Shown here: positions 40,156-42,796 of the stretch, piece after piece | Layout of the letters: each line of letters begins with the position of its first letter | How positions within the stretch are numbered: position 1 is the stretch's first letter | IMG/VR virus record: IMGVR_UViG_3300028412_000004 | Coordinates: 61,532-125,531 of that record | Strand: one strand, 5' to 3' | Origin: a virus | DNA length: 64,000 bases | Notes under the pieces: generated by a model | What the model was told of the DNA's origin: nothing | Database searches by the model: none | What the model saw: the letters and a program-made list of their open reading frames with translations, nothing else | Program-made: the position numbers and the translations under genes

Positions 40156-42796
40156 CCGGAGGAACTCTATGCCCTAAGTGGGACCCTCCCATCACGCCCC
40201 CGCTAAGTTTGGACCGCACTTGTTCCATAAGTGCTCTGTCCTCCAGCAGGGGTTCGCCCTTAAGTAGACGTCCTAGAATGTAAGCAAAGTTGACCGCATG
40301 CAGTGTGTCATCTGTTTTAGATCCATGGCGTTGGTACTTAAACTCTGTGGCGCCAGTAGTCTGATTCTCCACCGGTACACGGTATAAATTTAAAAAGTCA
40401 TCCATGTAGGTAGCGCACTCGTCCCAAGGAAAGCATTTGATGCGGGGATCTACGCGCCTAATATCTGTATACAGTTTCGTAATAGATTCTGTTCGGTTGA
40501 TTGAAAATTGATTATACCAGCTATGTCCGGAGGGAGGGGCTATTGGCGCTGCTTTAGGGCCTACATACCCTAGGATCAAGTGTTGGTCCGAGTTAATGTA
40601 TGGAGACTCTCGCAGCAGCATGTTGTAAGCAGCGCCTACGCCGAAGTCAGACGCCATAGCCGTACCGCGGTACCTTTTATGGTCCTTGATGATCTCGTTG
40701 ATGACCTCCTGGTATTTCATACCAGAGTATCTACGGATGTGTAAAATATGGAAGTCTCCGTTTTTGGCGAGGCCTAGTATAGCATGCACCGTGTAGGACA
40801 GTTTAGTTCGTGTGGCCGGATTGTAATCCGAACCACCCCAGTCACATCCTGAAATGATGTACTTATATTTTTTACCTATAACATCCTTCATCAGCTGATC
40901 CTTAGAAGGGAGGACGCACATGTCCTTGAGATCCTGCTCGGTTATTTCGCGAGCACCCTCAGCTGTAGGAATACCTAGGATCTCTTGAAGGAACTTCTTG
41001 CGGTCATACTCGCAGAAAGCCTTCCAAATTTCATTCCACTTATTCGGCTTACCAACAAAGTCAGGGATAACAATCTGAGGTATGTGCAAACCCTTATACC
41101 CGGCCTTGAGGAGGTTGGGGAACGCATGAACAAACTCCCCCTGACTTGGATCCAGTATCTTGCTGGTATGCGGGCAAGTAAGACCCTCAGGTTGTATCAT
41201 TTTGATCGCTTCGTCCGGGTCTGCGCAATTAATCCAGTTCTTACCATCACCTGCCCGTATATGCCAGCTGCCTTGGCTCGACATATCCCACTTAGCTTCC
41301 AACAGCGTATCGATCGTCAGCGATGTACCTGAGTAAACCGTGGACGGCATCGGGGAAGCTTTCTGTACCTGCTCAAGCTCTGGCATCAGAGATGCGTCCA
41401 TGTGTTGGCAGTTATGAACTAGTATACCGTTGGCGAAGAACGTGTGGTGATCCTCAACCTCGATATCGTAAACGTCCTGTTTTCCGGCGTATGTGATGGT
41501 CTCAAGACCTACAGGTGTCAGCAGTGAGGAATCCCTGCCACTTTCAACACCTTGCCGGAATCGACATCCGTCTTGTAGCCGAGGACCTGTATAAAATTGA
41601 ACGCAGGAGTTGTTAGTGTGCTGCCGGCACAGCTGACTTTCCCACACCCCATATTCTCTCGGAACCTCAGAGGTGTCTTCATGTAGCAGCACAACAATTC
41701 CTGTATCTTCAACGCGAACTCCAATTGTTTGTAACTCTGGCTTATTCGGTAACGCATCCCGGAGCCACTTAATAGGCTCATGCTCGCGTCTCCAGGGAGT
41801 GTCCCCAGTAAAAGCTGTTTCTGCTGCGGTGATAAGGGATTTAATTTTGTAAGTTCTACCACACCTGCTGGCTTCTTCTGGAGTAATAAACTCGCACAGA
41901 TGCTGGAAACCTTTGTCGGTTCTAAACCGGGTACTTCCTGTACAAGTGATCTTACTTCCGTCGGAGAATACGACATCCCAGACATGCTGCGCCCCTTTGT
42001 TGTAGAAGTCTGTAACTTTTCTTTTATGTGTTCTATCTTCTGCATCAGCCGAGACTACACAGTCTCCTACCAGCATTTCGCCGATCTTTTTATCTACAAC
42101 CTTATAGCCCTCTCCTGCAGCGGAGAGCGAAGAAACTAGTGTACATCCACACACCGATTCGTCCACCACAATCTCGTCCGATGTTTTACCTCGGGCCTCT
42201 GCCGCAGTAGAGAGCATACGAATCAGTTCAATAACCGAACCATTGGGATACTCCTTATAATTAAGGTTCTGTCTGTGGCTGGGGGAGTTTACCGGGAACG
42301 CGAATGCGCGCTCCATCTCGCGTAGTCGGTTGGCGTAAGTTTTACGATGCTCCTCGTGAGGCACGACGTATAAACTGCGGTATTTAGGAAGTAGTGAAGC
42401 GTTCACCAACTGCCTCACGCCTAGCGTGGTGCTGTTGTGGGACAGAAGCCCACCAGTGTAATACAAGTGGTCTGGGGTGTCTATCTCCATATCATAGAAC
42501 TGTTCCCATGCGTCCTCGTCTTTAGGAGGTGTGATCTTTACGACAAGCTGTGGGCCTGTCTCGCTATCAACGAGGTCCCCGGGCTGCAGGTCCGACAACC
42601 ACACACAGGGACCTCCTACCAGCTTCACCCGGTGCTGCTGTGCGCCACGTAAGGTGTAGTCAGTTGTCTGGAGCTCCCATACAGCCATGTGTAGAGTCCG
42701 GAACATACGGAGCACATCTACAAAACCACTAGGTGTATCCACCTGCAGGGTTCCTGGCGCAACTTCAACTACTTTGTCTATTTGCCAATCTTGCAT
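40142..42796 (-). CDS. terL: Terminase large subunit, C-terminal gene (IntC + rest of ATPase with second intein + nuclease domain)
   Basis: After SHN the Walker A continues (STTLG). Walker B IVVDE|CQ; nuclease motifs GCDWGG, SDFGVG and DDTLHA. Confidence 0.85.
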   Translation of the reverse strand: MQDWQIDKVVEVAPGTLQVDTPSGFVDVLRMFRTLHMAVWELQTTDYTLRGAQQHRVKLVGGPCVWLSDLQPGDLVDSETGPQLVVKITPPKDEDAWEQFYDMEIDTPDHLYYTGGLLSHNSTTLGVRQLVNASLLPKYRSLYVVPHEEHRKTYANRLREMERAFAFPVNSPSHRQNLNYKEYPNGSVIELIRMLSTAAEARGKTSDEIVVDESVCGCTLVSSLSAAGEGYKVVDKKIGEMLVGDCVVSADAEDRTHKRKVTDFYNKGAQHVWDVVFSDGSKITCTGSTRFRTDKGFQHLCEFITPEEASRCGRTYKIKSLITAAETAFTGDTPWRREHEPIKWLRDALPNKPELQTIGVRVEDTGIVVLLHEDTSEVPREYGVWESQLCRQHTNNSCVQFYTGPRLQDGCRFRQGVESGRDSSLLTPVGLETITYAGKQDVYDIEVEDHHTFFANGILVHNCQHMDASLMPELEQVQKASPMPSTVYSGTSLTIDTLLEAKWDMSSQGSWHIRAGDGKNWINCADPDEAIKMIQPEGLTCPHTSKILDPSQGEFVHAFPNLLKAGYKGLHIPQIVIPDFVGKPNKWNEIWKAFCEYDRKKFLQEILGIPTAEGAREITEQDLKDMCVLPSKDQLMKDVIGKKYKYIISGCDWGGSDYNPATRTKLSYTVHAILGLAKNGDFHILHIRRYSGMKYQEVINEIIKDHKRYRGTAMASDFGVGAAYNMLLRESPYINSDQHLILGYVGPKAAPIAPPSGHSWYNQFSINRTESITKLYTDIRRVDPRIKCFPWDECATYMDDFLNLYRVPVENQTTGATEFKYQRHGSKTDDTLHAVNFAYILGRLLKGEPLLEDRALMEQVRSKLSGGVMGGSHLGHRVPPVISG
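41411..42157 (-). mobile_element. Intein (249 aa) in terL Walker B
   Basis: Starts SVCGCTLV after VVDE, ends VYDIEVEDHHTFFANGILVHN, +1 residue Cys; removal restores IVVDECQ. Confidence 0.9.
41518..42045 (-). pseudogene. LAGLIDADG-type homing endonuclease sequence in the +1 frame inside the terL intein (hidden or degenerate)
   Basis: LSPQQKQLLLGTLPGDAS...YRISQSYKQLEFALKIQELL...TTPAFNFI resembles the first half of LAGLIDADG_2 enzymes; it stops before a second motif. Confidence 0.6.
42434..42796 (-). mobile_element. Split intein C-fragment (121 aa)
   Basis: Own ATG. Carries block B (GAQQH), block F (FYDMEIDTPDHLYYT) and terminal SHN with +1 Ser. Confidence 0.85.

Follow-up and report, generated by a model that had tools for sequence, protein, structure and literature searches.

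A truncated LAGLIDADG_2 endonuclease gene in the +1 frame of a terL Walker-B intein from an uncultured lake-water phage, most likely a decaying relic

Introduction

Does an open reading frame (ORF) lying in the +1 frame of an intein, itself inserted in a phage gene for the terminase large subunit (terL), encode a working homing endonuclease, or is it what is left of one? The question is raised by a 64,000-nucleotide stretch of DNA, hereafter the window (positions 61,532 to 125,531 of IMG/VR record IMGVR_UViG_3300028412_000004), which was taken from a 125.5-kb viral contig with an estimated completeness of 66%. An earlier note on this DNA, made from the sequence alone, had drawn attention to a LAGLIDADG-like motif in the +1 frame and had offered two explanations: a dual-coding, separately translated single-motif endonuclease, or a domain that was once in frame, was put out of frame by compensating frameshifts, and has lost its second half to a deletion. 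The answer that we favour, with a probability of roughly 0.8, is that terL is translated through the relic in frame 0 (the frame of the host gene), that a mini-intein with a junk linker is presumably then excised, and that the +1 ORF is a non-cutting remnant.

Out-of-frame intein endonucleases were already described in 2025–26, and the window is a decayed further case. In the cyanobacterial dnaX intein, first noted by Gorbalenya in 1998 as cited in the paper that follows, a same-strand LAGLIDADG ORF lies over a disordered linker (Phillips, DeSimone and Gogarten, bioRxiv 10.64898/2026.09.14.751524); later papers also cite Gorbalenya (1998) for an antisense LAGLIDADG gene in an intein. Actinophage inteins, many of them in terL, have been found to carry antisense LAGLIDADG, antisense VSR-like, and frame-3 endonuclease VII-like genes, and an origin has been proposed in which a free-standing endonuclease gene invades a mini-intein, with decay towards mini-inteins as a predicted outcome (Gosselin, Arsenault and Gogarten, bioRxiv 10.1101/2025.01.02.630785). 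A hidden HNH gene has been described in a phage methylase gene (2025, PMC11855218).

Homology and fold of the +1 ORF

The ORF singled out by the earlier note, with its LAGLIDADG-like motif and its ATGs at 41985 and 41976, is present. From stop to stop it covers 41518–42054 (178 codons, +1 relative to the 884-aa terL ORF), and its translation includes ..LSPQQKQLLLGTLPGDAS..; besides the two ATGs just named, of which that at 41985 has AAGGGG 8 nt upstream, an ATG at 42045 is a candidate start and yields a protein of 175 aa. Length by itself proves little, because the window has some 12 further stop-to-stop ORFs that reach 150 codons and resemble off-frame or antisense overlaps of longer ORFs.

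Identity as a LAGLIDADG protein, which had been suggested on the strength of the motif, is upheld by homology searches. The Pfam LAGLIDADG_2 profile (PF03161) gives a marginal match over profile positions 2–84 of 168, below its cut-off (E=0.0011; 19.4 bits vs a cut-off of 25). A phmmer search with the ORF against 1.84 billion representative proteins returned 34 matches, 10 of them at E<=1e-10 and the best at E=4.3e-17, with ORF residues 17–166 aligned to residues 5–154 of a 420-aa protein; the relatives of 350–420 aa carry both motifs (LLGTLLGDGS ... WWYxDDG), a CxxC...C region, and a basic tail. A family hidden Markov model (HMM) that was built without the window matches the ORF at E=1.3e-37 (HMM positions 3–154 of about 390; matches reach position 376). 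These comparisons indicate that the +1 ORF is homologous to LAGLIDADG_2 homing endonucleases of about 250–480 aa. PHROGs contained no match to it, and tblastn against deposited phages gave nothing significant.

An AlphaFold2 model of the ORF, computed from a 44-sequence alignment, predicts a single LAGLIDADG half-domain, for which the block-mean pLDDT (predicted local distance difference test) rises from 80 to 90–96 over residues 61–160 and is 87 over residues 161–170; the first 60 residues, which overlap the N-lobe of the intein, are of low confidence and modelled as disordered. The best 50 Foldseek matches in the PDB are all LAGLIDADG-type, headed by I-WcaI (E=9e-5) and I-SceI (E=2e-4). Both of these PF03161 enzymes are monomeric and have two motifs, whereas the ORF of the window has only the first. 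In the models, the two frames appear ordered in complementary places, with the half-domain in the +1 frame and the HINT lobes in frame 0.

Relatives with the native +1 layout

Related loci were retrieved from IMG/VR, Joint Genome Institute (JGI) metagenomes, and metagenome-assembled genomes (MAGs), with the intein region and the endonuclease alignment as queries; a single-protein scan of IMG/VR with terL gave no match, and the loci came from the alignment-based scans. At 14 distinct loci, the window included, an endonuclease ORF lies inside a long open ORF, and the offset is always +1. Eleven of these (L008, L024, L027, L015, L009, L013, L012, L016, L017, L046, and L059) have an intact +1 ORF of 249–476 aa; the other three, namely the window, L007, and L022, hold remnants. 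The enclosing ORF is TerL at every locus except L046, which has a helicase-like host, and the intein sits in most of them at Walker B, between (D or E)E and CQD (the pattern being (D or E)E / ... HN / CQD, with slashes for splice junctions here and below); in L009 it lies just upstream of the motif. The six intact ORFs that were tested match the full LAGLIDADG_2 profile with E from 1e-13 to 1e-39 (49–134 bits).

The two frames of this shared DNA behave differently. Across the endonuclease DNA, the host frame has no stop in any of the 13 nested copies counted (96–475 codons), whereas 6–43 interrupt the equivalent frame of free-standing or fractured-gene relatives, and the third frame contains 8–37 everywhere. 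Translations in the endonuclease frame are strongly similar in divergent pairs (z 7 to 130), whereas the host-frame translations of the same bases are at z of about 0, like the non-coding third frame. What does recur in frame 0 consists of islands that are by-products of the endonuclease motifs: TWRREH shares its DNA with ..LxGDxS, and VVxGRR with ..WxxDDG. Most intact copies have a start codon 6–21 codons ahead of motif 1, and in several the Shine-Dalgarno sequence is clear; such a sequence and a start precede motif 1 in L008, L007, L013, L015, L016, L017, and L027 (e.g. AGGAG-6 nt-TTG in L008 and L007, GGAGG-6 nt-ATG in L013, and AGGAG-6 nt-GTG in L017).

On these sequence grounds, the native arrangement is an overprinted, separately initiated endonuclease gene in an intein whose host frame would be selected only for openness. 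Because only the endonuclease frame is conserved as protein, dual coding would be ancestral and not a product of compensating frameshifts. The dual-coding part of the first of the earlier explanations thus stands, in view of the 11 intact +1 relatives, as does the deletion in the second, whose frameshifts are not called for, the +1 layout being native in relatives. Intact in-frame homologues were looked for as well, and the only ones are the distant L021 and L061 (27–32% identity), fused in frame in canonical inteins; the nearest relatives in the endonuclease frame (up to 45% identity) are full length and, where their DNA is known (L008, L024, and L027), out of frame.

At L046 (3–2252), the +1 endonuclease lies at 226–1263, in the intein of the helicase-like host (..MIADE/CIAGDT...HN/CQDTS). 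Judging from this locus, the unit of intein and endonuclease may have moved between nucleotide-binding sites of different genes.

The Walker-B intein in frame 0

The intein of the window follows directly on the Walker B sequence VVDE and ends in ..FFANGILVHN/CQHMD, its boundaries having been set by alignment to relatives whose inteins begin directly after DE or EE and end HN/CQ. It is contiguous, not split: the host frame is continuous. The Pfam Intein_splicing profile matches it at E=6.9e-8, with 32.9 bits, under the cut-off of 35.8. A model of the frame-0 product, which starts at C216 and covers 247 of the 250 residues, finds mini-inteins in Foldseek (NpuDnaB at E=5e-8, TM score 0.83); 45 matches have E<=1e-3, and among the matches listed nearly all are inteins. 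The N-terminal HINT lobe shows frame-0 conservation with the proteins P0002–P0005, and the C-terminal lobe is conserved in all relatives.

Between the lobes, residues 115–182 and 199–208 of the model have pLDDT <50, and frame 0 gives z of about 0 against distant relatives, in agreement with the earlier description of the middle of the intein frame as featureless. The same description had taken LLTPVGL, which follows in the intein frame, to lead into a second LAGLIDADG motif; in fact this is a conserved frame-0 strand before intein block F, with the equivalents KLVPVTLESIEYAG in L008 and DLTPVYIDSITYAG in P0002 (KLVPV in L008 vs LLTPV in the window).

As to the splicing residues, blocks F and G with the terminal His-Asn are present (HHTFFANGILVHN/C), and C+1 follows the terminal HN. 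The residue after the Walker B DE is Ser or Thr in the window and in seven close relatives and Cys in four canonical relatives, so that a nucleophile stands at residue 1 as well as at +1. Block B has Thr in place of the His of T-x-x-H in the window (41924–41944) and its clade (P0002–P0005, L007, L008, and L024), where it reads C-T-G-S/N-T-R; the usual C-T-x-x-H block B, together with Cys1, is found in the more distant L009, L012, L013, L016, and L017. TerL requires its Walker B region intact, which suggests that the intein of the window splices out of TerL.

A blastn search against deposited phages returned only a match of 41 nt and 92.7% identity, between 41408–41448 (the DNA of blocks F and G) and 41 Brucella phage records (Tb and relatives; JN939331 3827–3867). 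In these, it falls at the boundary between what is annotated as ‘terminase large subunit’ and ‘HNH endonuclease’; these phages may carry a related terL intein end.

Truncation and decay of the copy in the window

The +1 ORF of the window aligns to the family up to position 160 or so (..GKVLKV) and then jumps to AGIPHC and a stop, a terminus that resembles the AGLPRM-stop of several full-length members. From the endonuclease stop to the last residue of the intein there are 35 codons in the window, 32 in L008, and 15–41 in all intact copies. The native start region is retained and motif 1 is present; the second motif, W-x-x-DDG, and everything beyond it are absent. The simplest reading is that a single internal deletion of about 230 codons took the second half-domain, the CxxC region, and the basic tail, and that the native stop was kept. 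Since the reading frame of terL has to be preserved, the length of such a deletion would be a multiple of three; the host frame over the endonuclease DNA of the window has 0 stops in 177 codons. An in-frame deletion that is tolerated in this way also leaves the +1 frame open, so that no selection on the +1 frame can be read from the openness of the relic.

What remains of the ORF has changed further. Five of the 19 positions that are conserved at >=80% in the family are altered (0–2 in the close clade), and a Pro at the conserved Leu of the LAGLIDADG helix occurs in the window only, the 50 other sequences compared having L, M, or I; the conserved acidic residue that closes motif 1 is kept (G-D). 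The Shine-Dalgarno sequence and TTG start of L008 and L007 are absent, and ATG 41985 with its upstream AAGGGG remains. Decay is also seen elsewhere in the family: L007 and L022 have premature stops at 94 and 66 codons, and the closest protein relative (P0002, for which only the protein is available; 62% frame-0 identity) has kept the second-motif island and is shortened elsewhere, from which it follows that deletions arose independently in different lineages. Site-specific cleavage by the leftover 175-aa ORF is accordingly judged unlikely, and a decaying, non-cutting relic is its most likely nature. The features that bear on this reading are collected in Table 1.

The sequence of events that we propose starts from the intact relatives. 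There, the host frame would be translated straight through a long junk linker and the intein would then splice out of TerL, while the endonuclease would be translated from an internal Shine-Dalgarno sequence and start codon of its own and would drive homing into empty Walker-B sites. In the window, the in-frame deletion of about 230 codons would have joined the first ~165 residues to the last six and the native stop, leaving what is now probably a fixed mini-intein with a disordered linker of ~95 aa. With its +1 ORF reduced to a non-cutting remnant, this intein would no longer home on its own.

Several observations weigh against this account. The remnant is free of premature stops throughout its 178 codons and retains the motif-1 Asp and possible ATG starts, and by openness, Asp, and ATGs a recent deletion is indistinguishable from residual function. 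Its identity to relatives, ~35–45%, is no lower than that among intact members. The exact deletion junction partly rests on a C-terminal resemblance of six residues, and block B of the intein (CTGSTRF) lacks the usual His.

Table 1. Features of the terL locus, with positions in the window
Feature	Position	Strand	Basis or remark
terL C-terminal gene, 884 aa	40142..42796	-	ORF listing; C-extein = PHROG 675, E=2.4e-14
Parts of the 884-aa terL ORF: split-intein IntC at Walker A, TerL ATPase core, Walker-B intein, TerL nuclease part			
Intein right after Walker B VVDE	41411..42160	-	ORF residues S213-N462 (250 aa), then C+1 of CQHMD
N-terminal HINT lobe, frame 0, including block B CTGSTRF	41822..42160	-	model residues 1-110, block-mean pLDDT 72-91
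Frame-0 linker, ~95 aa	41528..41809	-	stop-free; protein sequence unconserved; frame-0 reading of the endonuclease remnant
C-terminal HINT lobe, frame 0: LLTPVGLETITYAG, block F HHTFFANG, block G ILVHN	41411..41524	-	model residues 210-247, block-mean pLDDT 82-90
+1 ORF, truncated LAGLIDADG_2 homing-endonuclease gene	41518..42045	-	175 aa + TGA
Predicted alpha-beta-beta-alpha-beta-beta-alpha LAGLIDADG half-domain, +1 frame	41536..41838	-	AlphaFold2 + Foldseek
First LAGLIDADG motif, LLLGTLPGDAS, +1 frame	41782..41814	-	same bases in frame 0 = conserved island TPWRREH
Approximate junction of the proposed internal in-frame deletion, ~230 codons	41530..41545	-	..GKVLKV upstream, AGIPHC-stop downstream

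Alternative explanations

The 175-aa ORF might still be at work, as a single-motif protein that starts at ATG 41985 or 42045 and, as an I-CreI-like dimer, cuts or nicks DNA or has some other DNA-binding role. Engineering has turned isolated N-terminal domains of monomeric LAGLIDADG enzymes into homodimers. In favour of such a protein, no stop interrupts the ORF between the start region and the native stop, the model shows one complete half-domain at pLDDT 90–96, the motif-1 Asp is kept, and AAGGGG lies 8 nt before ATG 41985. We nevertheless consider a working protein unlikely. Openness follows automatically from any deletion that terL tolerates, the Pro falls in the helix of the dimer interface, at a position that is L, M, or I in all 50 others compared, another four conserved positions are changed, and the CxxC region and basic tail of the aligned full-length members are lost; independent decay in other lineages (L007 and L022) points the same way. 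These deletions and decayed residues also tell against the part of the earlier note's first explanation that saw here a functional single-motif enzyme. Quite unlikely, too, is a half-endonuclease made from the +1 frame as a ‘monomerised-to-dimer’ LAGLIDADG protein, a DNA-binding regulator, or an immunity factor; were it true, it would be a natural case in which a double-motif enzyme has gone back to being a single-motif homodimer.

That the endonuclease was once an ordinary in-frame domain, was shifted out by one frameshift and the host frame restored by a second, and was then partly deleted, appears very unlikely. In its favour, same-family in-frame versions exist in terL inteins (L021 and L061), and, as P0026 illustrates, one indel is enough to join the endonuclease frame to the C-terminal lobe of the intein. 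The +1 layout with its own start and stop is, however, common to the 11 intact relatives, which belong to very different TerL lineages, the nearest endonuclease-frame relatives are full length and, where their DNA is known (L008, L024, and L027), out of frame, and the intein of the window roots among the +1 forms; moreover, the overlap of about 60 codons between the +1 ORF and the conserved N-lobe in the clade of the window would be left unexplained.

The same ~60-codon extension back into the N-lobe, together with the lack of an ATG upstream of motif 1 in L008, could instead be taken to mean that the endonuclease is reached by programmed +1 ribosomal frameshifting, which would yield a fusion of N-extein, IntN, and endonuclease. 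This is highly improbable, since a TTG follows six bases after AGGAG in L008 and L007; in most other lineages an ATG or GTG start precedes motif 1 by a few codons, the upstream stop being only 3–30 codons off; no conserved slippery site is known, although no search aimed at one was made; and the N-terminal 60 residues of the ORF in the window are modelled as disordered. A chance open frame with a chance motif, for which the ~12 similar overlapping ORFs of >=150 codons in the window and the sub-threshold Pfam match might be cited, has a negligible probability and is refuted by the phmmer (E=4.3e-17 against 1.84 billion proteins) and family HMM (E=1.3e-37) matches, and the specific fold match and the homologous ORFs at the same place in relatives speak against it as well.

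Other layouts of the endonuclease lineage and comparison with known systems

One LAGLIDADG_2 lineage is thus met in four layouts: free-standing (L018–L020), between the halves of split inteins in helicase genes (L053 and L031), overprinted in the +1 frame (the 14 loci including the window), and fused in frame. A series of this kind is what the model in which an endonuclease invades a mini-intein predicts, and in the window the homing cycle of an intein with an overprinted endonuclease is seen at its decay stage.

In L053 (1555–3333) and L031 (256–2646), the insertion is at Walker B (..IDE/CF..), the two halves flank an overlapping free-standing LAGLIDADG_2 gene, and stops close the host frame. 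P0026, which is available only as a protein (516 aa), begins in the endonuclease frame and, after CKNCGTLL, continues apparently in the host frame with blocks F and G and the TerL C-extein; its two frames look as if fused by an indel or a sequencing error.

The dnaX intein (bioRxiv 10.64898/2026.09.14.751524) resembles the intact relatives described here in having a same-strand ORF over a low-confidence linker between the lobes, a Shine-Dalgarno sequence before the start, and purifying selection in the endonuclease but not in the host frame. It differs in its host, which is cellular dnaX and not the Walker-B site of a phage terL, and the copy in the window is truncated; the endonuclease here has a C-terminal CxxC region and a basic tail, which is given as a difference from the dnaX endonuclease, and the likeness is one of layout. 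A same-strand +1 LAGLIDADG_2 gene in terL is absent from the types reported for actinophage inteins (bioRxiv 10.1101/2025.01.02.630785), and the phages here are uncultured environmental ones (lake water in the case of the window), not actinophages; in the compared literature on out-of-frame intein endonucleases, this arrangement in terL Walker-B inteins of environmental phages is unreported. The terL of environmental phages thereby joins the few documented hosts of such endonucleases.

L053 and L031 are like the fractured genes of Dassa et al. (2009, PMC2677866), in which a free-standing endonuclease gene lies between the halves of a split intein. The terL of the window shares with these a split intein, at Walker A, whereas its Walker-B intein is contiguous. 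The hidden HNH element (PMC11855218) is comparable in that the endonuclease is in another frame and the host frame is stop-free; unlike the intein of the window, it has no splicing domains, and its nuclease belongs to a different family. For annotation, all this serves as a warning that the ‘featureless’ middles of inteins are worth reading in other frames.

The terL genes and their samples

Several lake-water metagenomes carry sequence near-identical to the window, and no RNA run is among the sequencing runs listed for it. Contigs of four lake-water runs contain no joints and no sign of an intein-less or full-length allele, although contigs can hide rare variants; besides the likely source contig, only contig X4 (41521–41668) touches the deletion junction, with 18 bases on one side, and it was not counted as bridging. 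No second copy of the endonuclease family was found in the 125.5-kb contig, which is 66% complete.

In the window, terL consists of two genes on the minus strand, 42914–43351 and 40142–42796, the second of which is assigned to the terminase large subunit through its C-extein (Table 1). The fracture is at Walker A (42797–43351, minus strand): gene 1 ends GK/CLTFNT.. with a 40-aa IntN and a stop, 39 in-frame codons with three further TAA follow, and gene 2 begins with a 121-aa IntC that ends SHN/ST. The Walker-A element has the appearance of an atypically split intein whose IntN is short. Reassignment of TAA, a candidate explanation of the in-frame TAAs upstream of gene 2, was rejected: TAA terminates 26 of the 58 long stop-to-stop ORFs of the window and is the commonest stop.

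Within the short IntN (42957–43034), one low-depth contig from a second lake-water run, X2, has ~40 differences and two 1-base indels in ~80 bases, with near-identical flanks, which may mean that the IntN segment also exists as a mosaic or recombinant allele.

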